From contig CM022679.1 of assembly GCA_012295275.1 (NCBI GenBank), forward strand, positions 26,784,001-26,848,000: a DNA stretch of 64,000 bases. The letters run 5' to 3'. Source of the DNA: Chrysomallon squamiferum (taxonomy: Eukaryota > Animalia > Mollusca). The first letter of the stretch is position 1; the number at the start of each line of letters is the position of its first letter. Both the position numbers and the translations under genes were made by a program. Positions 1 to 62,900 of this stretch are shown in pieces. The notes under the pieces were generated by a model. The model saw only the letters and a program-made list of their open reading frames with translations. It was not told the DNA's origin and did no database searches.

Positions 1-378
1 GAATCTAGCAGTTACATTTACTGTGTTGACAAATAAAATAAATTTCAGTAGTTGTTAGTTTAATTAAATTTTTTATAAGCATCTACAGATAGGATTCCAG
101 TCATGATCTTTATTCAAGCCAGGCCTTAATAGATGGAATCCATCCACTCCCAAAAATGTCACTTAGGTGCAGAGAAGAAAATGTTTATCTTTAATTTTAA
201 AATATTTATTTTTAATTCTTAAAATGTTTTATTTTAGATATATGTAGAATAAAATGCAAACTAAAGCATTTTCAACTGTTTAAACAGCTAGAACACTTTC
301 TAACAAGATGCTGTGGCATGATTATTCCTTTACATGTATTAATCATTTGATGGTAAAGAAACAGTTCTATTCTTTCAG

Positions 379-543
379 GCAGTACATTTTAATGTATCCA
401 TATATGATGAATGAAGATCTTGATACCCGTTTAAAACATGTGTGGGATAAAAAAGCTTTGTTATTGTTGGACGATTGTATTCGCATTGTGTACCAGGTGT
501 CTGTTGGGTTAAAGTTCTTGCACCAAGATGATGGACATAACAG
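379..543 (+). CDS. Gene A kinase exon, subdomains V-VIa (hinge, alphaE)
   Basis: tctttcag|g...aacag|gtatgg, 165 nt, phase 2-2; QYILMYPYMMNEDLDTRL...IRIVYQVSVGLKFLH, with the Tyr gatekeeper typical of IRAK/Pelle/RLK kinases. Confidence 0.9.
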
Positions 544-4725: not shown

Positions 4726-4775
<50 letters not shown>

Positions 4776-6345: not shown

Positions 6346-6397
<52 letters not shown>

Positions 6398-8295
6398 TGC
6401 CAGTGTATATATACATACATACTTAGAGATGTAGACACACAGACACACACACCCCATATACACATACAGTTATGCATACATATATACATACATATTAAGA
6501 GACATATCCACACACACACACACACACACACATACTCGCACAGATCTACAGTAAAAGGAACGTCACAACAACGTGGGATGAAAATGGTTATGAATAATAA
6601 TCATAAAAATTGTTTATGTGGAAAATTTACTGAAGTACATACTATGCTGATCCATTTTATTTTGTGCTATGAATTACAGACTTGTAACTCATTAGTTTAC
6701 ATCGTATAACTGTTCTTTCATAATCTTGTGTGCCTGTCATTCAGTAGCCATTGCCTTCACCTGATTTCATTATGAAACTAAAATGATTTCACTTCAGGTC
6801 ACAATAACATATTTGTCCTGATGGTTTCTGGAATTGGTAAAAATCCAAAGGAGAAAATTATACTTAATTCTGATATTGATAGAATGAAAGAAATTCTGGA
6901 GGATAAACATATCATTGGTGTCAGGTAAACTTTCTTTTTATTATTGCTACTGCTTATCCAAAATCCTTGGTCACAAACCAAATCATAATGACAGTGTTCA
7001 TTCGTTACACTTCATGAATTTGCAAATCAGTTACTGGTTTCCCTTTACTAGGTTAAAAATAAAATAATCTACAAAGAAATGTAATGTGTAAGCATAAAAC
7101 AGCACATAATTGTGGTTGATTCGTTATGCACTTCTAAACTAAGAAAAACTGCCCAAAATTTGCAATGTTCTCTAGTCAAATAAAAACATTTAGAAATGGG
7201 TTTAGAGATATTTTATAGTTGTGGGTTTAGATAGATGTATCAGTGATATTAAATGCACATTACTGCACAATATAAATAAATATACTAATATATTTAATTA
7301 ATAAATTGTAAACATGTTTGACTTTTATCAAGTCAGATAACAAAATTGATAAATGGTATATTATTATTAAATAAACTCTTAATGTTTTATCACTGGGCAG
7401 TTTCTGTTAATAATGGACGCACATTTTTGATTTGCAGTTACTTGTATGCATTCATTAATCTGTAATAAAAATAATAATCAGTTTGTTAAAGAGAGCATTT
7501 GTCACATCATAAACACTTTCATTTGTTCAGTAAGAACTTTTTCATTTTTTGCTATTTTAGTCTGAATTAGTTGTTTATCATATATATTTTTATTATTTCC
7601 TTGTTTTTAAAAACTTTTTCAGTCCTGATAATATAACAGTGATCAGTGAAAAGGCTGATAAAAACAGTATTTTAAGTGCTGTTGATGAGATAAAGGAAAA
7701 AGTGGAAGGCCGGTTTGAAAGTCTTTTCATATTTTACTATACCGGACACCACAATATGGAAAGGGAATTTTTAACTGACGAACAGAAAAAATATCATCTA
7801 AAAGAAGAGGAACTGAAAGATCATTTCCGACAACTGAATGCCACATACATGTTGTTCATACTGGACACTTGTTATAGTGGGGGTGCTGACATTGGTGCAA
7901 AGGGTGATTATCAAGACTACTCACCTCCCTGCCTTTGGGATGTTTTTGAGTCTGATTTGCAGGCAAAAGGAGAAAAGTCTGTCTGTGTTGTTCAATGGTC
8001 TTCATCAGCTGAAAACCAGGCGTCTTATTATGAAGGAGACCAGAGTGCTTTTACCTATGCAATCATCAGTCAGCTGAAAAATGAATGTGTCATTTCTTGT
8101 AAAGACTGTTTTTACTGTAATGGTTTTCACAAAAGTGCAAAACACAAGGGCTATATTGACCTTAAAGAACTACATGACTCTGTTGAGTATCATGTTAGGA
8201 AAATTAAGAGTGGAAAACAGCTACCAAAACTACATAAAAAACCAGAAGATGCATTTATCCCACCATTTGCATATTATGTTCATAAAGATATGTAA
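379..8295 (+). CDS. Gene A (5' truncated by window): IRAK/Pelle-like kinase C-terminal half + RING-like finger + metacaspase/paracaspase-like C14 protease
   Basis: GT-AG exons 379-543, 894-1108, 2843-2964, 3644-3766, 4233(or 4280)-4316, 4493-4618, 6798-6924, 7623-8295(TAA). Phases are compatible throughout if the 4280 acceptor is used; the 4233 acceptor gives an early stop. Motifs: LMYPYM, IIHRDVKASNILLD, SDPGIAR, GTPGYVDPD, DVFGLGVVMLQLL, CxxC...CxxxCxxxCxxC...CPxH, FYYTGH, ILDTCYSG. Confidence 0.85.
894..1108 (+). CDS. Gene A kinase exon, catalytic loop to subdomain IX
   Basis: ccacag|a...gtgg|gtgagt, 215 nt; IIHRDVKASNILLDDMLNARLSDPGIARELGGQTHVTITSPMGTPGYVDPD...NDVFGLGV. Confidence 0.93.
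2843..2964 (+). CDS. Gene A kinase exon, subdomain IX-X
   Basis: tttcag|tt...gaa|gtaaga; continues DVFGLGV as VMLQLLLNKPA, matching the DVFSFGVVLLELLTGKPA consensus. Confidence 0.85.
3644..3766 (+). CDS. Gene A kinase exon, subdomain XI
   Basis: ttttcag|gct...cat|gtgagt, 123 nt, phase 0-0; DWPEELLKKFVNLACQAIAVADDRIT resembles the Pelle/RLK WP...LA..C......RP segment. Confidence 0.85.
4233..4316 (+). CDS. Gene A linker exon carrying the first CxxC of the RING-like finger (frameshifted from the 4233 acceptor, in frame from the 4280 acceptor)
   Basis: aaacag|gaa at 4232 gives ELLISASAELWKCPYS*; ccttacag|ttg at 4279 gives LTMCVSCFGQPI in phase with the next exon; donor g|gttagt at 4317. Confidence 0.65.
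4493..4618 (+). CDS. Gene A RING-like Cys/His zinc-finger exon
   Basis: tttcag|tg...attg|gtaaat, 126 nt, phase 1-1; KLKPLSPNCNENCTRFCVDCLSRSQENPLFCPQHGECQPPI. Confidence 0.8.
6798..6924 (+). CDS. Gene A C14 protease domain, first strand and helix
   Basis: cttcag|gt...gtcag|gtaaac, 127 nt, phase 1-2; NIFVLMVSGIG...LNSDIDRMKEIL matches the metacaspase ALLIGI...ND(A/V)xxM motif. Confidence 0.8.
7623..8295 (+). CDS. Gene A terminal exon: metacaspase/paracaspase-like peptidase C14 catalytic core
   Basis: ttttcag|t acceptor in phase with the previous exon; contains the 218-aa ORF. LFIFYYTGH (His codon 7747-7749), MLFILDTCYSG (Cys codon 7870-7872), VQWSSSAENQASY, SAFTYAI, IDLKELHDSVEYHV...QLP. AATAAA at 8321. 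Confidence 0.88.
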
Positions 8296-17655: not shown

Positions 17656-19957
17656 TATTTACCGAAACAGCTTACTTTAATACAGTCTAACATCTCGTAA
17701 TTAACTTGTATGTATCATTAAAGTAACTAAATATGTTACCCATTCATTTCTACAAATATTCCTAACAGTATGTATTAATTAAATATGTACTGTTAGTTAA
17801 CTGTAATCCAATTACTGAAATCACATAGAAATTAACAGTCATTAGCTAGAGACAAAGGGAATTTTTGTCACTTACGCTCTGCTGACTTCATGGAAGTTTG
17901 TGACATATTTGTTTAAGTAAAAGGCAGGAGAGACCACGTGACAGACACACCCTCTGGCCTGTCGTATATGTGCTTCACAGCCATTATTAGGCAATTTTGT
18001 TTGTAACTATATTTTGCGTTATCCTTGTTTAAGTCAGAAGCAGGGACAAATGGTGACCTTTTTAAGTGTGCTCTGTTTGACTTGTTGATTAATTTGATGT
18101 AACCTGTATATACTCCATAGAGAGTTTGTGTAAAATAAGTAATTATCTTTGAAATAGAAATATTGTTCTTGTGGATCCTTGATAATATATACAGTTTATA
18201 CCTGTAGGATATGCAAATATATGTATCTGTTATAATCAACCATCACAGTTTCTTAATTTCACGATGCAGTCCCTAGATAATAAATGAGCCATAATTTAAT
18301 AGGGTCATTAGCCCTTGAAAGCTAACACTCATTAACAATATCGAAATGAAGCTTTTTATGAGTGCTAAATCTGTACTGTATTTTTAAGCAAGTTGCTAAT
18401 ATTCATGAATTTTAATTAATTAATTAATCAAACTAATTAGCTGAAATTTACTGTACACCAATGTGTGTCAATGCCATTCAGAAAGTGTCGTGTGACCTAA
18501 ATTGATTTTGTTATTATCGATCCTCTGAAGCGAGGCCTGTGCATATGCAGTCTTTCGCTACCATACAGTCATCACTCACACCCATAAAATTAGTTGAAAT
18601 GTAGCATAATAGTAGTTAATAAGCAGATGTATTTTAAACATATTATTTTGAACATATTTTTTTTTGATTGATGACTTTGCTGAGATTTTCAGAAATATTT
18701 TTTCATAAAAAATTTGATAAACTGCCCCTCGGTCAATATTAAAAATAGAAACCGAGGTTGTAGCAAAATATGTATACATCATCAAACTTAATTTGTTTAG
18801 AAAGATTTTTCTAATGGACCAACAGATTGCACTTTGCTGATTCTATATAAGGATTGCACAGAAATCTCACGAGAGTGAAATAGGTTATTTGCACATATCT
18901 GTAAGTCAGCCAGTAGAGGTATTTCGCATTCATACTGCACACGCGCACCAAGAGTAATGTTCCTTGACAAAATAGACTGAAGGTAGTCTATTTACAAATT
19001 GAGTGGTGTCACAGATATGGTGTTATGGGCAATTTGAGTAGCTTTGTAGGAGACTTTAAACTTTGGCAACTAACATGTACATATTTCGAATTAGATGGCA
19101 TAATGGCCGTAAAAAACAGTCCACTGAAGTTTACAGCAGAATGGTTCAAATTAAAAAGCAGTGTAACAACTTGGACAAAGTCTCTACGACTCGTACACCC
19201 GAGCATTTTGTTAATGCCAGATTAACAGACTATTTTGTAAAAAGTACAAATACATATAATTTGTTTACTGGAAACAGAAGCTTGCACAAATATTGTAAAT
19301 ACCCCCATATCAAAATCAGGACTTATGTGAGCATCTCAGTATATGTGTGTGTGTCTCTGCATACATACAAAACACACACAACACACACACATTACCACAT
19401 TATAACTGAGGTGCCCATTCCCTCTCAAAACCACTAAACAGTTCCAAAGATGCACTAAATATTGGCAAGTCTTTGTAATGATACATTTACAGAGTACTTA
19501 CACCTTTGTTGTAGATACATCTAGCTGAACACTGATAATGTGGCCACATACGATGTTTAACAAACACAACATACAGTAACATGGTTAATTAAATCTTTTG
19601 TTTATGAAGAAAATGTGAGCAACTTATTTCCTTTTCAGGTTAAAACCAGTTACTTGTCTAATTTCAGTTATTGTTAGGTGTAATTAGTACAAATATGCAC
19701 AAGTATATATATACTTTATACTTAAAAGAAACTATAAATAAACCATTTATTTAGGAGTAACATATAATTGCTATATTGAAGATTGTAACTGTACCTTTAC
19801 TCATATACTCACACAAACACCTACACACTTGTACAACCCCTACTAAGTATTTGTGACTCCAAGCAACAAACACCTCAACTAGTTGAGGTAGACTGAATAA
19901 TTAAGAAAATAATTGAAACTGTTGTTCTCTGTAGTTATCTGAACTATGTTATTAATT

Positions 19958-20226
19958 TCATTTGTTTTTTGTTCTAGGTGTTGTGACAATTTCCCATCTC
20001 ATATTGAGGGTGGATATATAGTCCACATGTTTCTTCCCACCTAGAAAATGTGCCGAAAAAACCCTCATGTTTGCAGTAACATTAAAATCTTTTTCATTTC
20101 TATGTGAAGCAATTACCCACAAATATTTCCAGTATGCACTGGCTGGGTATAGATGGAAGGATAACGAATTCCCCAACTTCTGCGATAAGAACAGTTAATA
20201 ACTGAACAACAGTCATGGTGTCCCAT
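19958..20226 (-). pseudogene. Frameshifted THAP (C2CH) zinc-finger relic, probably from a DNA transposon
   Basis: MGHHDCCSVINCSYRR / SLSFHLYP...WKYLWVIASHR...FNVTANMRVFSAHFLGGK..DYISTL fits the THAP pattern (C-x4-C, FHxFP, W, VCSxHF, DYxPTL); frameshift near 20176. Confidence 0.75.
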
Positions 20227-21331
20227 TACAGAATGTTTGCTTTTGCCCACCAGTCTGCAAATAGGGCTATTTTGGTGAGATCTCAGGGTTTGTGTCCTCG
20301 AATTACCCAGCAAAAGGTACATGTTCAGTGGAATGTGACATACCTCTATTGTTATCTTGACTGTTTGAAAAATGGTCGGATCACCAAAGTGTTACTGCAG
20401 ACCAGACCTTCTGCTTAATGATGTATGTTGACCTATTCTTCTTTATTTACTTATATCTTACATAAAAATGATGGAAAAAGATGTCTGGTATTTTTCATCA
20501 TAATTGTCTAGAGTCTTGGATAATTTGCTATTTCAAAATGATAATGCTGCCTCTTTACAAATCAAACAAGCACATGCTGTTGTATTCTGAGTTGATTTAA
20601 GTTTTGCAATTCATTCAACTAAATTTTGCATTCCTTTTCATATCACTGTTTGTTTCAGATTTTGCTGGTTTTTGTTTTTCTTTCTTCTTGTTTATTAAAT
20701 TTTTTGGTTTTGCCCTGAAAAAAGTTTAAATGTAGCAGTTATTATTCACAAATCTCTATTGTCTTAAATAATGTTCAACTGGATGAAAATAAGCACTTAT
20801 TATGGGATTTGAAATTACTTCAATTCCTTAATATTCAACATATTCACCTGATGTAATTTTAAAGGGTTTCCAAGATCTTTTCAAATATGTTATTTGTTTT
20901 CAGATATCTGGGGTTTGAAATTTTTATCCACATAATGTGGCAGCGGTCTTGTAATTCATTGTGACTAAGCAAAGTTTATTCAAGACTTCAAATCATATAT
21001 AAGTTACAGATTATGCCTTTCTCTCACAGTCTGTCGAATTCCATACAAATACATCAGTCACTAGGTACTGAGATACATATGTGATGACTTCTATAATGCT
21101 TTTGTAATCCTTCCCAAATTTAACACTTAAAGATATAATTTTTAAATTACATTCCCTCAAATATTGCGTACCAGCAAAATTTGTAATGTTGCGTGATTTT
21201 GCCTTGACAGCACTATTTTCCAAGTTGTGAAAATAGAGTTCAAATTCCATTGTAGATATTTTCGGTTGATGTCAGTGTCTATTTGACTTTAGGAAGCAAT
21301 TCAAACTGTGAACATCAGTTTTAATAAATAT

Positions 21332-23185: not shown

Positions 23186-24676
23186 ATGGCTAATGAACCC
23201 GATATCTGCAGTAAGTATATCTGTCTTTCTTTCTGTAGTGAACAAGTCATTATGACAAATGAAATAAATATGTTGGTTGATAAGTGTTTATTGTCATAAC
23301 AAGTACAAAACTTTATTTTGTCTGATAACCTTGACCTGTTGCAGAAACCAGTAATCATTGCATGAAATAAGAAAAACTATTCAAAAAAAATCGAACAAAG
23401 CAGTTAGTGTGTGTGTATGAATTAGATATTACAAATCTTATTGTCGATTATAAATAAGATTATCAAATGTTAAGTGAATTTAACTTGACTTACTTATCAG
23501 TTATATAATTGTCATACAGTGTTCACCGTTAAATATTTCCAGTCAAAATAGTATCTAGCTTGATGGCAGTGGCAGTTTTACATTCATTTTTCAGTTGTGA
23601 AAAATAACTGGGAAATTATATTTTAAAAGTAGATTTTCTTTGTTGAGTGTTACAATAATTTTAGATTCTGTGAGTTATTTTGATGATTAAAAAACAAACA
23701 AAAAACACTAACATTATGATGAGAAAAATATGTTTAATAATTGTGGATAAAAACAGTGGTTAGTGATGTAAATATGAACAAATATATATATGATATATAT
23801 ATTGATTTCTGGTGCACAGTTATTAATAATATCAACAGTATTTGATATAAAGAAATACTTAAAATTGTACAGTATATTAATGTATAATCATTTTCACTTA
23901 AGATAAACGTTGATGTGGTGAAGATGTGATCCAAATAATTATAATTATTGTAGAAGGTAAAACTAGAATAGCATTGCCATGTCGGTGGCAGTCATCATTG
24001 GTTCCTGGTAAGCCACTGTCGCACTCGCTGCCTTTCAAGGATAACTTGAAGGTGTCCATAGCTTGAAATAAAGATGGCCAAATTCTCTGTCACAGTCAGT
24101 GGCTAATGATTCAAGTTCCCAGAGTAGCAAAGAGCCAGTAGCTGGAGATAAAGATGGCCAACATTACAACACCACAGCCAAGAAGATGAGCATTAAAGAA
24201 ACGAATGAATATTTTAAGGAGGATAATAAATTGTGTTCTGGTGTAGGAGGAACAGTTTATAAAGATTCAGATTTTTATTGCATGTTTAATTTCAAATACA
24301 TGTAGAAAATCTAGCCATTTGTTTAAGACGTTGCAAAACATGTTTCACGAAGTCTGCCACTTTGATTAATTTTTTCAGTTTTCTTACCATCAGCAAAATT
24401 AAAATGTTGCCTACCTGTTTAATTTTCTTTTCTTTTCTTATGCTTTGTTGTTAATCAAAAATTATTCCAAAAAATATATATCGCAATAACTTGGAAGTAT
24501 ACAAAATTTATTTAATCCTTTCATTGGATTCATATTAACTGAAACTTTTCATAACTTGAATATTCATGGTGCATTATTCATTTGTTTTGCTATTATAGGA
24601 TGTAAGCAGTATAATGACGCTGACATGGTTGCATAATGATATTGATAAAGAAAGCATGCAGACATCTTTTGCAATG
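23186..24676 (+). pseudogene. Relic D: truncated pseudogene of the same family
   Basis: ATG exon 23186-23210; DED exon deleted at ~23340; linker/Gly-loop exon ~23954-24264 has an in-frame TGA and a donor mutated to AT (aaag|attcag); subdomain II exon 24599-24676 has a deletion through the VxxK motif; no later exons found. Confidence 0.8.
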
Positions 24677-24698
24677 GTAAAGCTTACCACATATTTTA

Positions 24699-24737
<39 letters not shown>

Positions 24738-33078: not shown

Positions 33079-36000
33079 ATGGCTTCTGCAGCTGATTTCA
33101 GTGGTAAGTATGACTGTCTGTAGACAATGAGTCATTATGGCAAATGAAATAAGCATGCTGGTTGATAAGTGTGTATTGTCATACAAAGTACAAAACATTA
33201 TTTTGGCTGATAACCATGAGCTGCTGAAGTAGTTTACCATTATCTGAAATAATTCTGATGTCTCAGAATGGTGACTTGCTTTTTCTGTTATTTTCTTTTC
33301 AAGATGACGAAATGCGAGAAAAGCTTTCATCGATAGCAACAAAACTTGAATCTGAGGAACTAGAAAAATTAAAATTTATTTTTCGAGATGCTCTCACGGT
33401 AAAGGACAAAATCAAAACAGCACAAGATCTTTTTGATATATTATGTAAACGTAAAATAATAAGTCGAAAAAATATGGCATCCCTTGTAAAGGCTTTGGAG
33501 TTGATTCAGAGTGAAGATGCCATTGATATGATTGAGACCTTTTACAGAGAAGAGAAAAGGGACATCTTAAAAAATAAATCATGTGTTTCTGAATTTACTT
33601 CTCAACTTTATAAATTTGGTTCTGACATGAATGAAGAAGATGTTGAAAAATTGGCTTTTTGTTATAAAATTAAACAATATAACAATCGATGGGAACTGCT
33701 GATTCTGTTAAGCAAGAAAGGTGATTTGAAAAATGTGAAAAGTATTGAAAAGGTTAAAAAAAAGCTGGGGATTCCTTCAAATGAGAGACCAGCACATCAG
33801 CAGGAACATCGTCCAACTGAGCAATCATCAGAAACCGGTAATCATTGAATGAAATAAGAAAACAATAGTATCTATGTTGTATATGAATTAGATATTTATA
33901 TTACAAATATAATTTCCATTATAAACATAATTATAAAAATAAGTGAATTTAACTTGACTATTAGATACCTATCACAGTTAGATATTTCCATTCAAAATAG
34001 TATCAGCTTAGTTGCAGTTTTGCAATCCGTTTTCAGTTGTGAAAAACACCTGGGGAAATTGTAGTTTAAAAGTAGTTTTCTTCGTTGAATGTCACAATAA
34101 TGCAAGATAGTGTCGTAGGTACTTTGGGTGAAAAAACCCCAAAACATTGTGATCAGTAAATTGTGGTTGATAATTGTGGATAAAAAACAATAGTCAGTGA
34201 CGTAAACATAGCACTAAAATAAATACATTGATTTCTGGTGTTTAGTTAATAATAATATCAACAGTATTTAATATGAAAAAAATATATAAAAGTTACTTGA
34301 AATCGTATGATGTATCAACGTAAAATCATTTTCATTTAAGATAAACATTGATGCGGTGAAGATCTAATCAAGATAATTATAATTATTGTAGCAGGTCAAA
34401 ATGTAAGAGAATTACCAGATGTGCCTGAGGACACTGTGATTTATCACCATTGCCCTGACTACTCAAATTCCCAGTATAGAGAAGAGCCAAAAGCTGTGGA
34501 TAACAATGGCCAACCTGACCACACCACAACCAAGAAGATGAGAATAACAGAAATGAAGGAATATTTTGAGGAGAGTAATACATTAGGAGCCGGTGGAAAT
34601 GGAACAGTTTATAAAGGTTCCGATTTTTATTGCATATTTAAATTTCACATACATGTTGAAAATGTATTCCCAAACATGTTGTAATGAAATCTGCCAATTT
34701 TATTAATCGTTTCAGTTTTATCTGCAATCAGTAAAATTCCAATGTTGCCAACATTTTAATTTTATTTTCTTTTCTTACACTTTGTTATTACCAAAAATTA
34801 TTTCAAGAAAGATATATATCAGAATAACTTGGAAATATACAAAATTAATTTAATCCTTTTATTGGTAGGATCCTGGATGCATATTAACTGTTTATAAGTT
34901 TATTTTAATATGTATCACTTATAAGTAGTTTTTCCTGGTTCAGTGTCGCAACAATTTGAGATCCTGTGAAATCCATTTTGGGCTAAAAATAAAAGAGCTA
35001 AAAAATTTAAACATTGTGATCAGCAAATCATGATTGATAATTGTGGATAAAAACAGTTGTTAGTTATGTAAATAGTGTACTAAAATAAATACATAGATTT
35101 CTGGTGCATAATTATTAATAATATCAACTATACTTCATATAAGAAAATAATTCTTAAAATTGTACAATGTATCAATATAAAATCATTTTCATTTAAGATA
35201 AACATTGATGCAGTGAAGATCTAATCCAGATCATTATAATTATTTAGCAGGTCAAAATACAGCAGTAGTCCAGCGTGTGCCTCAGGGATCATTGGATTAT
35301 TCGCTGTCATCGTCAAAGGCTGATGATTCAAATTACCAGTATAGCCAAAAGCAAGTAACTGTGCATATCTATGGCCAATATGGCAGCATCACAGTGTGTA
35401 AATCTTGTTCAAAGTGCAGACAACATTTGCCTGATGGTTAGTTTCATCTTACCTGAGAACTGTTGACATCACTTTAAACTGCTGTTTTAGCATTGTTAAC
35501 ATATTTACAACAATTGATGTTTTGTTTATATGTTTATTTTAATATGCATGACTTATAAGTAGTTTTTCTTGGTTCAGTCTCACAACAATTTGAGATCCTG
35601 TGAAATCCATTTGGGGTAAAAAAAAAAAAGATAAAACAATTTAAACATTGTGATCAGCAAATCATGATTGATAATTGTGGGTAATAACAGTAGTTAGTGA
35701 TGTAAATAATGTACATAAATAAATACATTGATTTCTGGTGCATGGTTATTAATAATATCCAAAAATATATAATATATAAAGAAATATATATTACTTAAAA
35801 TCATGTGATGTATAAATGTAAACTCATTTTCACTTAAGATAAACATCGATGCATTGAAGATGTAACCGAGATAATTATATCACAAAAAAATGTGGCTGAT
35901 GATTCGAATTCCCAGTGTTGCCTAGAGCCAGTAGCTGTGTTTATCAATGACCACCCTGGCAGACAACATTTTTCTGATGGTTAGTTTCATCTTACCTGAG

Positions 36001-39000
36001 AACTGTTGACATTGCTTTAAACTGCTGTTTTAGCATTGTTAACATATTTAAAACAATTGATGTTTTGTTTATATGTTTATTTTAATATGCATCACTTATA
36101 AGTAGTTTTTTTTGGTTCAGTTTTACCACAATTTGAGATCTTGTGAAATCGATTCTGGGATAAAAAAGTAAAAAAGCGAAATATATATAAACATTGTGAT
36201 CAGTAAATCATGATTGATAATTGTGGATAAAAACAGTTGTTAGTGATGTAAATAGTGTACTAAAACAAATACATGGATTTCTGGTGCAGAGTTATTAATA
36301 ATATCAACTATACTTCATAAAGAAAATAATTCTTAAAATTGTACAATGTATCAATATGAAGTCATTTTCATTTAAGATAAACTTCGATGCAGTGAAGATC
36401 TAATCCAGATCATTATAATTATTATAGCAAGTCAAAATGCAGAAGCAGCTCAACACGTGCCTCAGCAGACGTTGGATTATTCGCTGCCATCGTCAGAGGC
36501 TGATGATTCAAATTACCAATATAGCCAAAAGACAGTAGCTGTAGGTTACGATGGCCAACCTGACCACACCACAACCAAGAAGATGAGAATAACAGAAATG
36601 AAGGAATATTTTGATGAGAGTAATAAGTTAGGAGCCGGTGGAAATGGAACAGTTTATAAAGGTTCTGATATTTATTGCATATTAAAATTTCATCCACATG
36701 TAGAAAATGTATCCAGTTGCTTAAGAAGTTGCAAAATATGTTTCATGAAGTCTGCCACTTTTATCTACCATAAGTAAAATTTAAATGTTGCCTACATGTT
36801 TAATTTTCTTTCTTTTCTTATACTTTGTTATTAACCAAAAATTATTCCAAAATATATATATCAGAATAACTTGGAAATATACAAAACGAATTCAATCCTT
36901 TTATTGGTAGGATCCTGGATTCATATTAACTGAAACATTTCATTACTTGAATATACATGGTGCATAATTCACATTTTCTGTTATTTATTACAGGATGTAA
37001 GCAGTATAATGACTGTGACGTGATTGTCAACGTTTTGCATAATCATAATGGTCAAGAAAAGATGCTGGAATCTTTCAAAATGGTAAAATTACCGCACATT
37101 TTTATCTTTTTATTATTATTGTTATTATAATTTTTTATTTGTCAGTGTTATCAGAAAGCAAAACAGTTATTTCCACTATAAGAAATCTTTTTTCTTTATT
37201 TTTTATTGTTTTAGTATGATGCATACACACGTACAAAGCACATAGCAAAGTCTTTGCTGCTGCTATTGTGACGCTTGAATGCATATAGTTCAAGAGATAA
37301 CCGTAGAAGATGGATCCTGTTACCCATTACAAATCAGCTTTGCATAGCTCCCCATGTTCCATGACATTGTAACTAAATATTTGTGTTGCAGCAAGAGAAA
37401 ACCACGCTAAATGCAAATTTACAAATTTATTATTTATTTACTTTTCTGATTATAAAACTAGAAAAATAATGTCACAAAACAACTGTCGGTGAATGCCCTC
37501 ATAATGTACGTCAAAGTGTTACGTCTGCATGCAAATTTTGCCAGTTCATACAGTGTTGTTTGGGTGTATGGCTGCACAAGGTTCTTGACGTGCCTCAGAA
37601 AAATATTTGAATATGAGATATGTCTATTTTTTTCAGGAGATGATCTCATCTAGAAAAAAGCATCCTTTTTTGCTGCCATTGTTAGCTTATTGTGATGAGA
37701 AGCAAGGGATAAACAGGTAATTACAAAGGAAAAACTCGAATAAAACTGGGATCAGGCCATTCAATTGGAACTGAGAGTTATTGACTTGTATACTAGTTTA
37801 TCACTGTACTACCACTTGGCTCACAATTGAAACAGAAGCATAACAATAAAATAAAAAGGACTTTTTTATTTTTTATTTATTTTTTATTTTTATATAAAAT
37901 CGAAATGTTCACTATAATTAATGGAATATATATGGCAAATGTTCAAATCAAACACCCATTCTTACTTAGTTATGTCGAATATAGTCATTTGCCTTGTTAT
38001 CACATGGGATTGGAAATGAATACTGACTGCTGAGCCTAGAAAAAAAAGTTTGGTGTGTATGTGTGTGCATGTCTCTTTGATTGTTAACATGAGTTTGATA
38101 ATTATCTACAGAAGAGATTCCAGTCATGATTTTATTCAAGCGAAGGTTTAACAGATGGAACCCATCCACTCCCAAAAATGACACTTGGTCTGCATGAAGA
38201 AAATATTTATCTTTAATTTTAAAATATTTCTTTCATTTTTATAAAGTTTTATTTTTGATATGTAGAATAAAAAATTAAAATGCTAAATAATCCATTTTTA
38301 TTTGTTTAAACAGCTAGTACACATTCTAAAAAGACTGTTTGCCATGGTTCTTTCTATGGATTAAGGTCAAAGAAACAATTCTATGTTTTCAGGCAGTGCA
38401 TTTTAATGTATCCATATATGAAGAATAAAGATCTTGATACCCGTTTAAAAGAGGTGTGGGAAGGAAAAGCTACATTATTGTTGGAGGATCGTGTTCGCAT
38501 TATGTACCAGGTGTCTGCTGGGTTAAAGTTCTTGCACCAAAAAGATGGAAATAATGGGTACGCAATTAACATGATTAAGATAAACAAAGAAAACAACTAC
38601 ATTAATTAATATTTCTTCAATTTAGTTAAATCATCTTGCTCTGAGTGTTTGTGCAGATAGGTAGATAGATAAATAGATAGATGGGCAGGCCTATCTGTGT
38701 GTAAACAATCTGTACATGAATATTGCAGGATGGATGATTTTAGAGTTTGTATCTAAAACTACTATTTGTTCCTTGTTAGATAAAAATATACTAATTTATG
38801 TAATATGAAATATGGTTAAGTCAGAACTCATCTTGTATGTCACAAATAATCTGTCTGTTGCTTTAGCTGTTGAATTTTAACATGAATATTTCCATGACAT
38901 TTGTTTTCCCTCTCCCATAGAATAGAGATCATACACAGAGATGTGAAAGCTTCAAATATTTTGCTTGATGACATGCTGAATGCTCGACTCAGTGATCCAA

Positions 39001-39135
39001 GAATAGCAAGAGAGCTTGGTGGTCAGACACATGTGACAATCACAAGTTCGTTGGGCACTCCAGGATATGTTGATCCTGATGTTACAAGTTCAGGAGAGTT
39101 TAGACCAATAAACGATGTGTTTGGTCTTGGAGTGG
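33079..39135 (+). CDS. Gene B (3' end lost at or in the assembly gap): tandem DED + linker + IRAK/Pelle-like (pseudo)kinase
   Basis: Exons 33079-33103 (ATG), 33304-33837, 34395-34616 and/or 35251-35436 and/or 36428-36661, 36994-37082, 37637-37716, 38393-38557, 38921-39135; all GT-AG and phase-compatible. The last two exons are direct paralogs of gene A exons. Confidence 0.85.
33304..33837 (+). CDS. Gene B tandem death effector domain (DED-DED) exon
   Basis: ttttcaag|at...accg|gtaatc, 534 nt, phase 1-1; LSSIATKLESEELEKLKFIF...TAQDLFDILCKRKIISRKNMASLVKALELI (DED1) and VSEFTSQLYKFGSDMNEEDVEKLAF...WELLILL (shorter DED2), like a caspase-8/cFLIP prodomain. Confidence 0.85.
34395..34616 (+). CDS. 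Gene B linker + Gly-rich loop exon, copy 1
   Basis: tag/cag NAGNAG acceptor, donor aaag|gttccg, phase 1-1; ends YFEESNTLGAGGNGTVYKG. Confidence 0.7.
35251..35436 (+). CDS. Gene B chimeric linker exon ending in a CxxC (no Gly loop)
   Basis: ttagcag|gt...gatg|gttagt, 186 nt, open, phase 1-1; QNTAVVQRVPQGSLDYS...ITVCKSCSKCRQHLPD. Confidence 0.55.
36428..36661 (+). CDS. Gene B linker + Gly-rich loop exon, copy 2
   Basis: attatag|ca...aaag|gttctg, 234 nt, phase 1-1; ends YFDESNKLGAGGNGTVYKG. Confidence 0.8.
36994..37082 (+). CDS. Gene B kinase subdomain II exon (VAIK Lys replaced by Asn)
   Basis: ttacag|ga...atg|gtaaaa, 89 nt; CKQYNDCDVIVNVLHNHNGQEKMLESFKM. Confidence 0.8.
37637..37716 (+). CDS. 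Gene B kinase subdomain III-IV exon
   Basis: tttcag|gag...aacag|gtaatt, 80 nt; EMISSRKKHPFLLPLLAYC resembles the E....HxNLVxLLGYC consensus. Confidence 0.82.
38393..38557 (+). CDS. Gene B kinase subdomain V-VIa exon
   Basis: 165 nt, paralog of 379-543; ILMYPYMKNKDLDTRL...RVRIMYQVSAGLKFLH. Confidence 0.88.
38921..39135 (+). CDS. Gene B kinase catalytic-loop exon (DPR at the DFG position)
   Basis: 215 nt, paralog of 894-1108; HRDVKASNILLD...SDPRIAR...GTPGYVDPD. Confidence 0.9.
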
Positions 39136-39890
39136 GTGAGTAACTTGAAAAATTATTAATCAACACACACACACACACACACACAAACATTTCATCACGG
39201 AGGCATGCTTGAACACAAATTTACATACATTCAAACACATACATACACATTCCTTTACAACAGGGGCATTCCTGAATACAAATGTGTGTGTGTGTTTGTG
39301 TGTGTGTGTATATACATACATACATACATACATACATACATACATACATAAACACATACACACACACACACACCATACACACATGTATACGTACGTGGTC
39401 AAAGATATTCGTTCAAGCCTGTATGCTGTAGCATTAACATTTTATCGTGTGTTGTTTAGAAACCAACACACGCCACTGATTTATACAAAAACATTCACAC
39501 TAGTCTACTCACATTACAATGATAATGTATATATGTATGTATATATCTCGCTCAGAAATAATGTTATTTTTAATTTCTTTTGATATTTTTGTATTTTTTC
39601 ACAATCAGTATTGAGTTCTTTGACTGTTCTAATTGTTGAAGTACATAACATGTAATGGTAAATCATTGTTTTCAGTTACTGTGATCATAAAACAATTGTC
39701 GTGACTTTGTATTTATGGCTTTGATGTTATTTTAAATTGGTGAGGAAAGCTTTCATCCCTGGAAGCTAATATTTCATTACAATATAGCCAAGTCTTAAGA
39801 AACATACACAGCAACACAGACATTAATAGTCTCTTGTTACTTTTCAAGCTAACTTGAAAAGCAGATTTTAAGACAAATCAACATATCTAA

Positions 39891-39940
<50 letters not shown>

Positions 39941-40782
39941 TGTTTATCTATGCATGAATGTTTGTATGTATATCAGTTATGATGACTTGTCTTAAATTAT
40001 GTTTTTTGAATATGTTTATATGACCTATATGCAATAACTTTAATAACAATTTTCACCATTTCTGTGAGCAACATTGGTTGGATATAAAATAGGACATGGA
40101 GTACAAATTAAATGAAAATACAAAAACATAATACTTGAGAGTTTTTTTGGGTATTCTAAATTATAAAAATGTGTAGCAGTTTAGTCCTCTATAATTCAAG
40201 TCACTGAACAAATTGTATTGATTTTACTTTCCTGAATGTGTACTGACTTATTTTAGTTTGTGTTTTGTGGAACAAAAGTAGCTCTGTTTTTCAGGAGTTT
40301 TTTGTTTAGATTTTAGAGATGTATACCAGTATTTCAAGTCTCTCATTTATATTCTTGTTTTTTTTTATGTTGTTGTTGTTTTGTTCAGTGTTTTTCTTTT
40401 TCTGTTGATAGTGATACTATAACAAGAACTTATTTAACCATATTGAGTAAATGTGCTGTATTTCATCTGTTCATTATGTTTTCAAAATTTTTTTATTTTC
40501 TTTTATTTTAATTTTTTTATTTTTTTATTTTTTGAAGTTTGTTAACTGTTTTGTGGAATTGTTTATTTATTTGTCAAGTGAATTCACTGTTTTATGAAAT
40601 TATTTGTTATTTGGAGAATGTTCACTGTGTTGTGAAATTGTTAACAATTTAATGATGTATGTCCACATTTGCTATTTAAGTTACTGAGTGGAAACTTTTA
40701 AATATTGTTATGTTATTAATATCTGTGTAATAAATTACTACAATTATTTGTTCTTTTTCTGGCATGTTGAATTTTTTCACAA

Positions 40783-40982
40783 NNNNNNNNNNNNNNNNNN
40801 NNNNNNNNNNNNNNNNNNNNNNNNNNNNNNNNNNNNNNNNNNNNNNNNNNNNNNNNNNNNNNNNNNNNNNNNNNNNNNNNNNNNNNNNNNNNNNNNNNNN
40901 NNNNNNNNNNNNNNNNNNNNNNNNNNNNNNNNNNNNNNNNNNNNNNNNNNNNNNNNNNNNNNNNNNNNNNNNNNNNNNNNNN
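40783..40982. other. Assembly gap (200 N)
   Basis: Run of N. Confidence 1.
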
Positions 40983-46070: not shown

Positions 46071-49000
46071 GCTCGCTGAACAATATCTCGCTTGACGATG
46101 TGCACCCTTTGCTTGCATTTCATTAGCTTATGTTATGTTATTTCTGGGATGTTCAGCATAAAAACACAAACAGGAAATCCGAAAGCATTCTTGATTTTGA
46201 ATATTTTGATTCAGTTGTATTTCTCAGTTTCTGAATCTACACTGATTTTTTTCAAGTTTTTATCTAACCATATCCTAACAGGGCCTTGATCAAGCTGTGG
46301 AAAATGTTCTCAGTGATATTTAGATATACTGTTTTTGTTTAAGTTAGAAAATTGGTCCTAACTTCCTTATTAAACCATGGGCCACAATTTAGGTTATAGC
46401 TACGTATAAATTTGCTGGTAGCTATTTTGTTACTTATTATAATATTTTATGCTGTTGTGCTATTAAGGTACAGTTTTTGAAAATGTCAGTAACATATTTA
46501 CTATTTACCTAAATAGCTTACTTTAATACAGTCTAACATCTCGTAATTAATTTGCATGTATCATTAAAGTAACTAAATATGTTACCCATTCATTTCTACA
46601 AATATTCCTAACAGTATTTATTAATTAAATATGTACTGTTAGTTAACTGGAATCCAATTACTGAAATCACATAGAAATTAACAGTCAGTAGCTAGAGACA
46701 AAGGGAATTTTTGTTAGTTACGCTCTGCTGATTACATGGAAGTCCCAACATATTTGTTTAAGTAAAAGGCAGGAGAGACCACGTGACAGACACACCCTCT
46801 GGCCTGTCGTAGACGTGCTTCACAGCCATTATTAGGCAATTTTGTTCGTAACTATATTTTGCGTTATCCTTGTTTAAGTCAGAAGCAGGGACAAATGGTG
46901 TCCAGTTTATGTATACTCTGTTTTATTTGTTGATCAATTTGATGTAACCTGTATATGCTCCATAGAGAGTTTGATTTTATATATTTCTAACGTTAGCCGT
47001 TAGGGAAAATTAAAAGAACTAAGAATTATAGTACCTCATTCAACATAACTCCCACTGAATAATAAGTATACATACGTAAAATAAATAATTATCTTTGAAA
47101 TAGAAATATTGTTCTTTGTTTTGTGTTCGTAGTGGATACTTGATATTATATACAGTTTATACCTGTAGTATATGCAAAATATGTATCTGTTATAATCAAC
47201 CATCACAGTTTCTTAATTACACGGCCAGTGTGTCCATCAAAAGGTGCAGTCCCTAGACAAAAAAATGAACCATAATTTAACGGGGTCATTAGCCCTTGAA
47301 AGCTAACACTCATTAACAATATCGAAATGAAGCTTTTTACGAGTTCTAAATCTGTACTGTATTTTTAAGCAAGTTATTAGCTGAAATTTACTGTACACCA
47401 GTGTGTGTCAATGCCATTCAGAGAAAGTCAGAAAGAGGCGTTGATGTCGTGTGACCTAAATTGATTTTGTTATTATTGATCCTCTGAAGTGCGGGCTGTG
47501 CATATGCAGTCTTTCGCTACCATACATTCATCACTCACACCCATAAAATTAGTTGAAATGTAGCATAATAGTACTTAATAAGCAGATTTATTTTAAACAT
47601 ATTATTTTGAACATATTTTTTTTGAAGGATATGCCCAAAACTTTTCCAGTGATTGATGACCTTGCTGAGATTTTCAGAAATATTTTTTCAGAAATATTTT
47701 TTGATAAACTTCCCCTTGGTCAATATTAAAAATCGAAACTGAGGTTGTAGCAAGATATGTATACATCATCAAACTAAATTTGTTTAGAAAGATTTTTCTA
47801 ATGGACCAAGAGATCAGACTTTGCTGATTCTATGCAAGAATCGCACAGAAATCTCACGAGAGTGAAATAGGTTATTTGCACATATCTTTAAGTCAGCCAG
47901 TAGAGGTATTTCGCAAACCTATTGCGCATGCGCACAAAGAGTAATGTTCCTTGACAAAATAGACTGAAAGTAGTCTACTTACAAATTGAGTGGTATGACA
48001 GATATGTTGTTATGGGCAATTTGAGTAGCTTTGTAGGAGACTTTAAACTTTGGCAACTAACATGTACATATTTTGAATTAGATGGCATAATGGCCGTAAA
48101 AAACAGTCCACTGAAATTTACAGCAGAATGGTTCAAATTAAAAAGCAATATAACAACTTGGACAAAGTCTCTACGACTCGTACACCCGATCATTTTGTTA
48201 ATGCCAGATTAACAGACTAGTTTGTAAAAAGTACAAATACATATAATTTGTTTACTGGAAACAAGCTTGCACAAATATTGTCAAAATCAGGGCATATGTG
48301 AGCATCTCAGTATATGTGTGTGTGTGTGTCTGAACGCGCACGCACACACACACACACATTCATACACACACACGGTCTGTGTTCTGTATGTATGTATACA
48401 TAATATATAGAAATGCTGTTATCCAACCTGTCATCTGCACCTACAAAAATGCTTGTGCACACACACACACACACACAGAGAGACACACACACACACATCA
48501 TAACTGAAAAAACACCTCTCAAAACCACTCAGTTCCAGATCAAGGTGTTGCGGGTGCCCATTCTCCACAGATGCACTAAACATTGGCAATGACTTGTTTG
48601 TTCAGCAAGTCTTTGTAATTATACCATTTACAGAGTATTTACACCTTTGTTGCAGATACATGTGTAGCTGAACACTGATAATATGGCCACATACAATGTT
48701 TAACAAACTCAACATAGAGTAACATGGTTAATTAAATCTTTTGTTTATGAAGAACATGTGAGCAACTTATTTCCTTATAGGTTAAAACCAGTTACCTGTC
48801 TAATTACAGTTATTGTTAGGTGTAATTAGTACAAATATGCACCAGTGCAATAAGTTTACATATTTTATGCTTAAAATAAACTCTATAAATAAACCATTTA
48901 TTTAGGAGTAACATATAACTGCTATATTGAAGATTGTGTGATTATACGAGTAAAGGTACAATTACAAACACCTACACACTTGTACAACCCCTACTAAGTA

Positions 49001-49099
49001 CTTGTGACTCCAAACAAAAAACACCTGAGGTAGACTGAATAATTATGAAAATAATTGAAGCTACTGTTCTCTGTAGTTATCTGAACTATGTCATTAATT

Positions 49100-49380
49100 T
49101 CATTTGTTTTTTGTTCTAGGTGTTGTGACAATTTCCCATCTCATATTGAGGGTGGATATATAGTCCACATGTTTCTTGTTCACTGGCTTCCCACCTAAAA
49201 AATGTGCCGAACAAACCCTCATGTTTGCAGCAATATTAAAATCTTTTTCACTTCTATGTGAAGCGATTACCCACAAATGTTTCCAATATGCACTGGCTGG
49301 GTATAGATGGAAGGATACTGAATTCCCCAACTTCTGCGATAAGAACAGTTAATAACTGAACAACAGTCATGGTGTCCCAT
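49100..49380 (-). pseudogene. Second copy of the frameshifted THAP relic
   Basis: Same frameshift; retains RVCSAHFLGGKPVNKKHVDYISTL. Confidence 0.78.
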
Positions 49381-50504
49381 TACAGCATGATTGCTTTTGC
49401 CCACCACTCTGCAAGTAGCGCTATTTTGGTGAGATCTCGGGGTTTGTGTCCTCGAATTACCCAGCAAAAGGTACATGTTCAGTGGAATGTGACATACCTC
49501 TATTGTTATCTTGACCATTTGAAAAATGGTCGGATCACCAAAGTCTTACTGCAGACCAGACCTTCTGCTTAATGATGTATGTTGACCTATTCTTCTTTAT
49601 TTACTTATATCGTACATAAAAATGATGGAAAAAGATGTCCCTAATATCATACTGGTATTTTTCGTCATAATTGTCTAGAGTCTTGGATAATTTGCTATTT
49701 TAAAATGATAATGCTGCCTCTTTACAAATCAAACAAGCACATGCTGTTGTATTCTGAGTTGATTTAAGTTTTGCAATTCATTCAACCAAATTTTGCATTC
49801 CTTTTCATATCACTGTTTGTTTCAGGTTTTGCTGGTTTTTGTTGTTTCTTCTTCTTCTTTATTAAATTTTTTGGTTTTGCCCTGAAAAAAAGTTCAAATG
49901 TAGCAGTTATCATTCACAAATCTCTATTGTCTTAAATAATGTTTAACTGGATTAAAATAAGCACTTATAATGGGATTTGAAATTACTGTTACTTCCTTAA
50001 TATTCAACATATTCACTTAGTGTAATTTTAAAGCGTTTCCAAGATCTTTTCAAATATGTTATTTGTTTTCAGATATCTGGGGTTTGAAATTTTTGTCCAC
50101 ATAATGCAGCAGCGGTCTTGTAATTCATTGTGACTAAGCAAAGTTTATTCAAGACTTCAAATCATATATAAATTACAGATTATGCCTTTCTCTTACAATC
50201 TGTCTAATACCAGTCAAATACACCAGACACTGGGTACTGAGATACTTGAAGTATGAATATATGTGATGACTTCTATAATTCTTCTGTAATCCTTCCCAAA
50301 TTTAACAATTAAAAATATAATTTTTAAATGACATATCCTCAAATACTGCCTACCAATGAAATTTCTAATGTTGCATGATTTTGTCTTGACACCACTATTT
50401 TCCAAGTTGTGAAAATAAAGTTCAAATTCCATTGTTGATTTTGTCACTTGATGTCAGTGTCCATTTTACTTTAGGAAGAAATTCAAACTGTGAACATCAG
50501 TTTT

Positions 50505-58368: not shown

Positions 58369-59938
58369 GAGAGTATTATTTAATTTAAATTTAAATTTTT
58401 TTTTATTTTTTTTTAATAACATTGACAGGGGACTGTTGTTAGGATTAATTATCCCTACTTTGAATTGGTAAACAAATTATTTTTACACTATGTATAATTT
58501 ATAACAGATAACGTACATCCATTTATAATATCTCCAAAATTTAACACTTAGAAACAAAAGAAATTAAATTACATCCCTCAAGTATATTGACTACATATCA
58601 TAAATTCCTCTGTGCAAATTTAACATTTGTCTAACCAAAAAAAGATGTACATTTGCAGTATCACCACATAACAAAATCTTCATACTGGTCCAGTATAACC
58701 ACAACTGCCAATATTATTTATGTCTACCTCGAACAGTTGATGATGAAAATACTGAACAGTCACATATAATTATAAATGTTGGTGCAGTAACAATTGTTGA
58801 GAGACATATATACATATCAATCTGAATGCCAAAAATAGTTAGTGTATGTAAAGGTAGCATGCAAGTAAAAGCTGATGTAGATAAAGTTGAGGTGCAAACA
58901 ATAGCCAGTGTTGTAAAGTTAGGATGTAAACAACTGTGTGTACTTGTAATTATTTGTGAACATTTGCTGACATATTGAGTTGTAGTGTTAAACTATAAGT
59001 GTTTACACAGTTGGTGTGTAAGCATGTAGTTCATGGAAATGTTTTTATAAGTTTTCAGTCTTTTCTTTCTGACATACTGAGGATTTTTTTGCTTTTCAGT
59101 ACTGGTAAGAGGCATTGTAACTGTACCAGCTGTTTAAATCAATTGATGTCAACTAAGAATGATTTTTATTGATAATAGGGTGCAGTCTATCCTTTGAGTT
59201 AAACACACAGAAAGCAAATACTAAGCTAAGAAAACTTATATTTCTGCTTAAAATATGACTTATCACAGCTGCACCTTTGATTGCCCTAAATTTTATGATT
59301 ATAGAGATCTTATTGCCCCTGATTTGTTACCTTTCTGGAATAAGCTCTGAGGATTAGCTCTGTTTGTTATTGCAGATGATTATGATTAAACATCAGATGC
59401 TTCTTGTCCTCCTAGGTAATGTATGTGTGTCTAATTGGATGTATTGAATGAGTTGATGTTATCAGCTATATCCTTAGAAAATGTGAAAATTGAATGCCTC
59501 TATATTAGTGGTAATGGAGAGGTTTTTATTTTGCTTTTCTGATGAAATTTTAAAAATAAGTCAAATTGTCACTCAATAATCCCAACTCATTTCCTGATCA
59601 TAAAGTGTATAAAAAAGAAAATAATAATAATAAAAATAATAAATAATAAATAAATAAAAATAAATATAAATAAGAAAATTACTTAAACATAAATACAAAT
59701 GCACATACAGACAAACACACACACATGAACATGTATATATAACATATCCTTTAATGTAACATAAACAACCAGATACAGTTCGATCTGATCAGTTATTAAT
59801 GTATGTTCTCTGCATCTGTGTGTGTTGAAACAAATGAAAATGTCTTACATTTTAATTTATTTAAAAAAAAAAAATTATATTTTATTTAGATGAAAAGTTC
59901 ATTCTTGCAGTCTGTACTCTTAACCATTGCTGAGAATA

Positions 59939-62900
59939 ATGGCTTATGCAGCTGATATCGGTGGTAAGCATGTCTGTCTATAGTGAATTAGTCATTATGA
60001 TTAAATGAAATAAATATGCTGGTTGATAAGTGTTTATTGCCATACAAAATACAAAACAATAACCTTGAGCTATTAATACATTTTACCATTATCTGAAATT
60101 GTTCTCATAACTGAAAATAGTGACTTGCTTTTACTGTGTTATTTTCATTTGAAGATACAGAAATGCAACATTATTGCCCAATAATTTGAGATAATATGGA
60201 GGATATTTTGCTAGGTTTTGTTGTTGTTTTTTAAAAAAGAAAAAAGCTAGAAATTTTAAACATTATATTTATAATTACAAAAACATGATAAGATAATTGT
60301 GGATAAAAACTGTGATTAGTGATGTAAATAGCATACAAAAATAAGCATGTTGATTTCTGGTGCATAATTATTAACAATATCAACAGTATTTAATACATCA
60401 AAAAATATGTTATTAAACTGTACAGTGCATAAATGTATAATTATTTTCACTTAACATAAACATCAAGCTGTGAATGTGCAATCCAGATGATTATTTTAGC
60501 AGGTCAAAATGTAACAGCTTTCCCAGATGGGACTGACTCATCATTGTTATGCAATAACGATTCACGTTCCCAGTCTAGTGAAGAGCCAGTAGCTGGAGAT
60601 AAAGATGGCCAACATGACAACATCACAGCCAAAAAGATGAGCATAACAGAAATGAATCAGTATTTTAAGGAGGATAATAAATTGTGTTCAGGTGGAGGAG
60701 GAACAGTTTATAAAGGTTCAGATTTTTATTGCATGTTTAAATTTCATACACATGTAGAAAATCTAGCCACTTGTTTAAGACGTTGCAAAACATGTTTGAC
60801 AAAGTTTGCCACTTTTATTAATCTTTTCAGTTTTATCTACCATCAGTAACATTTATATGTTGCCTACATTTTTCGTTTTCTCTTTTTTCCATATGCTTTG
60901 TTACTAATCAAAAATTATTCAAAGAAATATATATTGCAGTAACTTGAAAATATACAAAATGAATTTAATCCTTTTATTGGTAGGTTTCTGGATTCATATT
61001 TATTGAGATTTTTCATAACTTGAATATACTTGGTGCATAATTCAGATCTTTTGCTATTTATTATAGGATGTAAGCAGTATAATGACTGTGATGTGGTTGT
61101 CAAGATTTTGCATAATCATCCTGATAAAAAAAAGATGCTGGAATCATTCACAATGGTAAAGTTTACCACTTTTTTTTCTGTTTTCTTTCTCTTTTTATTA
61201 TTTGTTTTAGTTGTTATCAGAAAACAAATACGTTACTTCCACTATAAAAAAAATCTTTTATATTTCTTGTTTTTAATTTTTTGTGTTCCATACACACATT
61301 CAAAGCACATACCAAAGTCTTTTATGCTGCTATTGTGAAGCTTGAATGCATATGGGTCATTCCGTGTCAAATCACCCAATGGGTTAAACCCAACCGTCTC
61401 AGATTTGTATAAAACTTGGTATACTTGTTGACTGGGATCCCACAGCACCAAATCTGACATATTAGCCCAATCGGATCAGTGGTGTGGGAGATATGGCCCA
61501 CCGAATATTGAGATTTTTGGCAAAAATGGGCATGACCACCAACCTTAGAACCCTCACATCTCAGGAACTACTGGGCCAATCTTCATAAAATTGGTATTGT
61601 TGAAAAGGCAATATTGCAAGGATTCCAAATCTGCCATTTTTGTTCGGTTTGGAAAATATTGGAGTACATTGACCTTTTGACCTTTGCTATGACCTTGAAA
61701 TTGACGGTGTGGATCACGTGACCTTGAGATGACCTTTATTGAAATTTAATCTCCCACATGTTAACTAAAACATATACAAATTTCCTGGGTGTAATATTTT
61801 TGGTTTAGCCACAATATAGATTTAAAAAATGCACATACATGAAAATAACACATTTTCAGCCATTAACATCTGATTAACTAAAACCTGAATGATCGATTCT
61901 GGATGCTAGGAATCACCATCTTTCTTGATCATCGAGTAAGACTTTGTAGGCCTACATGTATGCATAAAGTTCACATAAACTTGAGAGAACTAGGTGTTCC
62001 ATGACAGTGTGACTAAATATTTGTTGTGCTGCAAGAGAAAACCAGACTAAACACAAAATTTACAAATTTATTATTTATTTATTTTTCTGAATATAAAACT
62101 TTAGAAAAATATCTCACAAAACATCCCCTCAAAATGTACATGAAAGTGTGAGGTGATCACCAACCACTTAATGCCACTGTTTTAGCCAAGGCTAATCATT
62201 ACCCCTCTCAAATTTGAATGCTAATGTACTTTTCAGAAAATACAAATAAAATGCCTTAGGTACAAAATATATATATAAAAATTAAAAAAATTACAATTCT
62301 ATAAATTAGGGCATTCTGACATTCTGTGGCCTGCTACTCAAAATAGCTGTTTCCATCTTTGGCCTGATTTTCATGTGCTGGGTCTCATTTCAGAGTTTTG
62401 GTTTATCTAATAGTTAATTTCAAATATTAATTATGTCAAATCACAATATTTGATCAGCTTGTATATGCTGTTGATACTTGGGTGTTATGTCTGTACAACA
62501 CTGTGTCAGCTCTTGCTATGATGATGATTTTGCTCGACTTTTATGTCTATATATTTTATCAGCTGATGCTGCAATATTGATGTTTTTTGAGTGTTATGTC
62601 TACGTAACATTTTACCAGTTCATACAATGTTGTGTGGGTGTATGGCTGCACAAGTTTTTTGACATGCCACAGCAAAATATTTGAATTTCACAAATGATTT
62701 TATATTTTTTTCAGGAGATGATTTCATCCAGAAAAAAGCATCCTTTTTTGCTGCCATTGTTAGCTTATTGTGAGGAGAATCAAGAGGAAAATGGGTAATA
62801 ACAAAGAAAATACAGGAATGAAGCTGATTGTGACATCAGGCCATATAACGAGAATTATTGACTTGTTTACCAGTCATTCCTTTATCAACTAATCAAATAG

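Follow-up and report, generated by a model that had tools for sequence, protein, structure and literature searches.

What becomes of an exon that opens as a copy of the linker in front of a kinase and closes like the exon in front of a RING-like finger? Such an exon, here called U1, lies in the window analysed here, a 64,000-nt stretch of the Chrysomallon squamiferum genome. The original prediction was that splicing from U1 to a RING exon skips the whole kinase and yields a DED-DED-RING-protease. We asked where the parts of U1 come from, how it is spliced, and what protein its host gene encodes.

The gene family of the cluster

Self-comparison showed that the window is a tandem cluster of a single animal gene family. 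The sole database relative found is P0001 from Gigantopelta aegis (LOC121378532, 1504 aa), the one match among 739 candidates of 400–2000 aa, with the layout CARD, two DEDs, kinase, Cys cluster and C14 protease. A tblastn map of P0001 onto the window set the limits of two genes, A and B (Table 1). The DED-DED exon of gene B is 37% identical to P0001 134–306, which spans both DEDs, and RNA record 1 differs from this exon at no position. The host family unites a DED pair, a kinase, a RING-like Cys cluster and a C14 protease that reads as metacaspase-like; the snail relative has the extra CARD. Further relatives were sought in several ways. P0001 1120–1504 gave no shorter relative among 1717 candidates of 30–826 aa in a weak search, and the DED exon gave no longer relative among 1189 in a search insensitive enough to miss P0001 itself; metagenome scans yielded 0 of 364 candidate stretches and no pattern matches.

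The cluster has a higher-order structure, in which 11829–39250 and 42080–64000 correspond over most of its length at an offset of 24–30 kb and about 70–94% identity. Copies D and C (23200–24730 and 59900–61400) keep exon 1 and the linker exon and have lost the DED exon, with different breakpoints. Contigs from RNA runs X1–X3 at 33103–33430 include other expressed paralogs, in which exon 1 is spliced to DED exons that are more divergent; expressed members of the family therefore outnumber those visible in the window. The duplicated stretches at 19000–20420 and 48000–49570 (related pieces near 29200 and 56200) contain open frames of 60–125 codons, are unrelated to the kinase family and are possibly decayed transposon pieces.

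Table 1. Genes, exons and intron pieces discussed in the text, in window coordinates
Feature	Coordinates	Strand	Properties
Gene A	1–8295		Kinase end, pre-RING exon, RING-like exon, protease
Gene A pre-RING exon	4233–4316	+	84 nt; out of frame as assembled
Gene A RING-like exon	4493–4618	+	Phase 1 acceptor; 59% to P0001, E 1e-14
Gene A C14 protease exon	7623–8295	+	PF00656, E 5e-11, above cut-off
Gene B	33079–40782		DEDs, linkers, kinase, then 200-N gap
Gene B first coding exon	33079–33103	+	Phase 1 donor; RNA joint to 33304
DED-DED exon	33304–33837	+	Phase 1-1; Pfam DED, E 6e-14, one stretch
U0	34392–34616	+	Linker exon with kinase glycine-rich start; RNA joints 33837>34392, 34616>35248
U1 hybrid exon	35248–35436	+	189 nt; phase 1-1; RNA joints at both ends; linker copy to 35394, foreign CxxC tail 35395–35436
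Intron piece homologous to gene A pre-RING intron	35437–35520	+	84 nt
Derived junction piece	35523–35555	+	33 nt; also at 34889 and 36066
U2	35839–35979	+	Degraded U1 copy; RNA joints 35436>35839, 35979>36428
Second copy of pre-RING intron piece	35980–36063	+	83.7% to 4316–4401
U3	36428–36661	+	Linker exon opening the surviving kinase; RNA
Gene B kinase exons	36994–37082, 37637–37716, 38393–38557, 38921–39135	+	Pfam Pkinase
Assembly gap	40783–40982	.	200 N; expected place of gene B kinase end, pre-RING, RING-like and protease exons

Sources of the hybrid exon

Between the DED exon and the kinase, gene B carries four tandem linker-type exons of phase 1-1, U0–U3, each with a length that is a multiple of 3; together they encode 262 residues, compared with 78 codons for U3 alone. 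The 5′ part of U1 proved homologous to the linker exon at 36428, as had been proposed, with 35250–35393 aligned gap-free at 78% identity. The exon itself is real, whereas its predicted start at 35251 was off, the RNA acceptor lying 3 nt earlier. Linker homology continues through ACAG at 35391–35394, most clearly against copies C and D, so that the 'aca' of the TVCKSC reading is common junction sequence. It stops at this ACAG, and the match to gene A starts at ACA 35391, which suggests that U1 may have been made by a microhomology join at ACA(G).

The claim that the U1 tail resembles gene A 4283–4300 held in part. The 19-mer on which it was based, picked post hoc, has its best other plus-strand match at 4283 (15 of 19; 1 of 63,981 positions), whereas the tail alone is not significant: when 35395–35436 was compared with the gene A exon end, 2049 of 12714 random 50-nt windows and 429 of 5000 shuffles scored as high, and an earlier global shuffle test of the U1 exon end against gene A was also not significant (443 of 2000). 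The last 27 nt of the tail do not align to the last 15 of the gene A pre-RING exon, and the gene A tail (MCVSC) is nearer to the distant snail protein P0001 than the U1 tail is. BLASTP of U1 against P0001 gave no match (E 91). With the tail so weak alone, it is its position, its phase and the frame of the CxxC that make a pre-RING origin likely; donor 35436 and RING acceptor 4493 are each phase 1, as predicted. A Pfam DUF6054 assignment on U1 was rejected at 19 bits against a cut-off of 27.

The intron behind U1 resembles that of gene A, again as predicted, with 87.2% identity over 86 nt between 35436–35520 and 4316–4401 (E 6.7e-22). A 23-nt pattern from this piece occurs three times in the 64 kb, always immediately after a GT donor, and in none of 100 shuffles. 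The 33-nt junction piece precedes U1, U2 and U3 and is absent upstream of U0 and copy D; the U0 intron tracks the U3 intron to about 34890 and then enters it. This common piece indicates that U1, U2 and U3 descend from one join of a pre-RING intron to a DED-linker intron. Their own introns differ by 9–18%, and because the intron tree supports U1+U3 alone (97; other nodes 22 and 45), we claim no order of copies. The proposal that U1 is a recombination product is supported.

U2 begins at a latent acceptor in what was once intron and corresponds to U1 less 33 nt, with 35 of 44 nt matching; the missing piece lay between GCAG repeats (35383 and 35416), and its loss took out the CxxC in frame. The linker part of U1 differs from U3 at 32 of 144 nt, compared with 29 of 325 in the upstream intron (p 0.0002), with pN 0.223 and pS 0.219 over 48 codons. 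By the pN and pS values its amino-acid sequence looks unconstrained, while none of U0–U3 has lost the frame. That the exon differs more than the intron is not accounted for by plain neutral decay; gene conversion is our guess, and the near-identical 3′ halves of U0 and U3 (97%) point to it.

RNA joins the linker exons on the way to the kinase

We used RNA from three runs of one study, of which only run X1 contains an appreciable fraction of the words (0.24). Runs X2 and X3 were left out, having no depth over U1 and only 2 of 34 and 5 of 40 contigs, respectively, at the level of at least 99%. The evidence from run X1 consists of contigs, in which minor isoforms can be lost, with 15 of 20 joints and 18 of 65 loose ends listed. 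The exon joints given in Table 1, together with 37082>37637 and 37716>38393, are GT..AG joints of this run. Over the 119 nt listed, RNA is identical to U1, and both ends of the exon are spliced, which settles the earlier concern that the exon might never be spliced in; the listed pieces of RNA records 1 and 2 are likewise free of differences.

Between the DED exon and the kinase, RNA joins U0–U3 in one open frame that runs into the kinase. The spliced path is open for 632 codons with no stops; RNA joins the first three kinase exons, and the last joint is placed by GT/AG and homology. Among the joints listed, none leads from 35436 to a RING exon, the junction that the original prediction called for; instead 35436>35839 is followed by 35979>36428 on the same contig. 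The joint into 36994 comes from an end common to U0 and U3, which do not differ over their last 34 nt; no contig therefore proves one molecule across all exons. A form that skips U1–U3, passing from U0 to 36994, is possible, and this skip leaves the simulated graph described below unchanged.

The bypass was tested in a simulated k=31 graph of the spliced path, using six simulated sets. The simulation reproduced record 1 (721 nt) exactly. Record 2 (352 nt, 35317–36518) was reproduced exactly only with an added U3/U1 hybrid path, in one of the six sets; this path leads from the 5′ part of U3 through a shared 22-mer to the 3′ part of U1, and the ends of record 2 (35317–35338 and 36497–36518) fit it. 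Such a hybrid could reflect an allele with a longer linker, the collapse of a repeat, an artefact of template switching or two variants that are separate. When a branch from U1 to a RING exon was added, simulated record 2 was cut at 35436 into 120 and 262 nt. The real contig is uncut, so no bypass survived assembly in run X1; a rare one could have been pruned from it.

Kinase, cysteine-rich and protease exons

In the gene B kinase, Asn replaces the beta3 lysine in exon 36994–37082 (VIVNVL, compared with VVVKIL in copy C and VVVKVM in P0001), which makes it a possible pseudokinase. The assembly reads DPR at the DFG site (38998–39003); RNA of the three runs has G at 39000 and reads DPG, as do gene A and P0001. 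Downstream, homology between the gene B intron and gene A extends to 2839, 4 nt short of the next gene A exon, and RNA has a loose end behind 39135. An RNA contig on the last gene B kinase exon (1 difference in 144) enters an exon like the gene A exon at 2843, so gene B likely continues in the assembly gap. The earlier claim that the DED gene is tied to the RING-protease part stands, with U1 a weaker link than P0001 and this contig.

The pre-RING exon of gene A is 84 nt long and yet has to take phase 0 to phase 1; read in its entry frame it runs into TGA, and MCVSC belongs to a different frame. Gene A may end before its RING-like and protease exons, unless an internal AG at 4278–4279 is used or the assembly is wrong. 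The RING-like exon has no Pfam RING match in gene A or P0001, and its Cys pattern is conserved between them; U1 would supply just the first CxxC of a RING.

Metacaspase-type C14 proteases have a His and Cys dyad in GH and DxC contexts. Both contexts are found in gene A, which reads YYTGH and LDTCYSGG, and P0001 likewise reads LDTCYSGG. The C14 exon matched NF047832, a bacterial caspase-like model, at E 8.5e-11, below the cut-off of that model, and its top three Atlas neighbours were plant C14/metacaspase clusters (0.85–0.86), a lead only. Searched by sequence, the PDB contained no match to the exon. A two-sequence profile found only plant receptor kinases there (1e-20) and was rejected. The structure model of the exon has a pLDDT of 39. 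Judged by its motifs, the gene A protease appears metacaspase-like and not caspase-8-like. The caspase-8-like layout that had been foreseen is not supported, on two counts: the kinase is kept on the RNA path, and the nearest matches of the protease are to metacaspase-like and bacterial caspase-like models.

Proposed origin and role of U1

In our favoured account, which we hold with good confidence, U1 is spliced in frame, is likely the kinase-deleted remnant of a duplicated linker-kinase-pre-RING module, and likely serves as an extra spacer and not as a bypass. Unequal recombination would have linked two successive gene copies, the first through its pre-RING intron and the second through its DED-linker intron, giving a repeated module with phase 1 at both ends. 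A deletion between the ACA(G) of the linker and the ACA of the pre-RING exon would then have taken the kinase of that module and left U1, although the data do not fix the order of module join and ACA deletion. U1 would have duplicated to U2, which would have lost its acceptor and, between two GCAG repeats, the CxxC; a separate deletion would have cut the U0 module. The DEDs would cluster the protein, and the spacer would set the reach of kinase and protease. The four linker exons would lengthen this probably disordered spacer in what is predicted to be a kinase/protease signalling protein assembled by its DEDs; selection would act on their frame rather than on their sequence.

Alternative explanations

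The bypass itself, with U1 spliced to a RING exon in a minor isoform or in a paralog elsewhere, appears unlikely to us. The phases match, U1 keeps its CxxC, and a kinase-less gene would have been an intermediate if the ACA deletion preceded the module join. However, RNA runs from 35436 towards the kinase on a contig that would have been cut by a branch to a RING exon, no RING exon follows in the assembled part of gene B, U2 discarded the CxxC, and the searches, weak as they are, returned P0001 alone (among 739) and no shorter relative (0 of 1717). Just as doubtful is a wider version, in which the linker is a recombination-driven cassette still changing in copy number, with some alleles, paralogs or minor isoforms using the U1 donor and dropping the kinase; it draws on the U3/U1 hybrid path implied in the RNA graph. 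If it were true, use of the U1 donor would restore the finger and let a single locus alternate between a death-signalling protein that is kinase-first and one that is protease-first.

Significant homology begins at the donor (4316/35436), and 16% of random windows equal the U1 tail alone; these results, with the failure of BLASTP to match U1 to P0001, would fit a crossover at the donor that brought in the intron piece alone, with a CxxC tail of other origin whose likeness to gene A is chance. We think this improbable, since the best plus-strand match of the 19-mer falls 34 nt before the same donor and in the CxxC frame, and linker exons in the cluster diverge faster than their introns. It is very improbable that the three Cys and one His of the U1 tail, followed by a His and a Cys at the start of U2, form a new metal-binding knuckle with a role of its own, as no family matches at cut-off, the same residues are deleted in the duplicate U2, and pN and pS are equal in the linker part. 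In a tandem cluster so rich in repeats, and with a gap in it, a dispersed repeat or assembly artefact, with U1 never used, might be suspected. That reading is hardly credible given only three copies of the intron piece in 64 kb, each right behind a GT donor, introns of U1, U2 and U3 that differ among themselves, and RNA that matches U1 exactly and splices both its ends.

Comparison with known systems

Exon shuffling and internal duplication follow a symmetric-phase rule. U1 has homologous tandem copies with flanking intron, equal phases and a place in mRNA, the marks of internal duplication. As in those processes, recombination in introns would have repeated a phase 1-1 block in gene B whose remnants are spliced in frame, and U2 recruited a latent acceptor. 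Unlike in plain exon shuffling, the repeated block is a multi-exon kinase module collapsed by in-exon deletions to hybrid exons, and three generations of remnants stand side by side. Exon shuffling by recombination within introns is described in parts of PMC3488318.

The catalytic motif of caspases is QACxG. The family shares with caspase-8/10 an N-terminal DED pair and a protease of C14 fold, but has a kinase and a Cys-rich finger between them, a gene A protease that reads LDTCYSGG without QACxG, and no kinase-less form in the RNA contigs of run X1. P0001 has the same order of DED, linker, kinase, Cys cluster and C14 (35% identity in C14, 59% in the RING-like exon) and, like gene B, a repeat-rich linker; unlike gene B, it carries a CARD at its N terminus and retains the beta3 lysine, and its linker has no match to U1. 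Among lophotrochozoans, caspases with kinase prodomains have been described in part of PMC11463336 for the flatworm Macrostomum lignano and the earthworm Eisenia andrei, which likewise fuse a caspase to a protein kinase domain; that part mentions neither a DED pair nor a RING with the kinase-caspases, and the main text of the paper contains no match to 'metacaspase'. Sections of two further papers deal with lineage-specific expansions and varied domain layouts of death-domain systems in marine invertebrates (PMC8195603) and with the split between Asp and Arg specificity (PMC11121540). In the literature searched by title and opening of the abstract, we found no account of a family that combines a DED pair with a kinase, a Cys finger and a protease of metacaspase-like type, which is weak evidence.

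Implications

U1 is a real, expressed hybrid exon that likely arose by ordinary internal duplication in an unusual gene family, and its host gene likely acts in cell death or immunity. It offers a clear, RNA-backed case of a deleted kinase module giving rise to new in-frame exons in a tandem immune or death cluster, with the junctions still readable, and it yields no caspase-8-like protein. The host family is odder than the hybrid exon itself: more surprising than U1 is the union, in one protein, of a DED pair, a kinase, a Cys finger and a protease that appears metacaspase-like.
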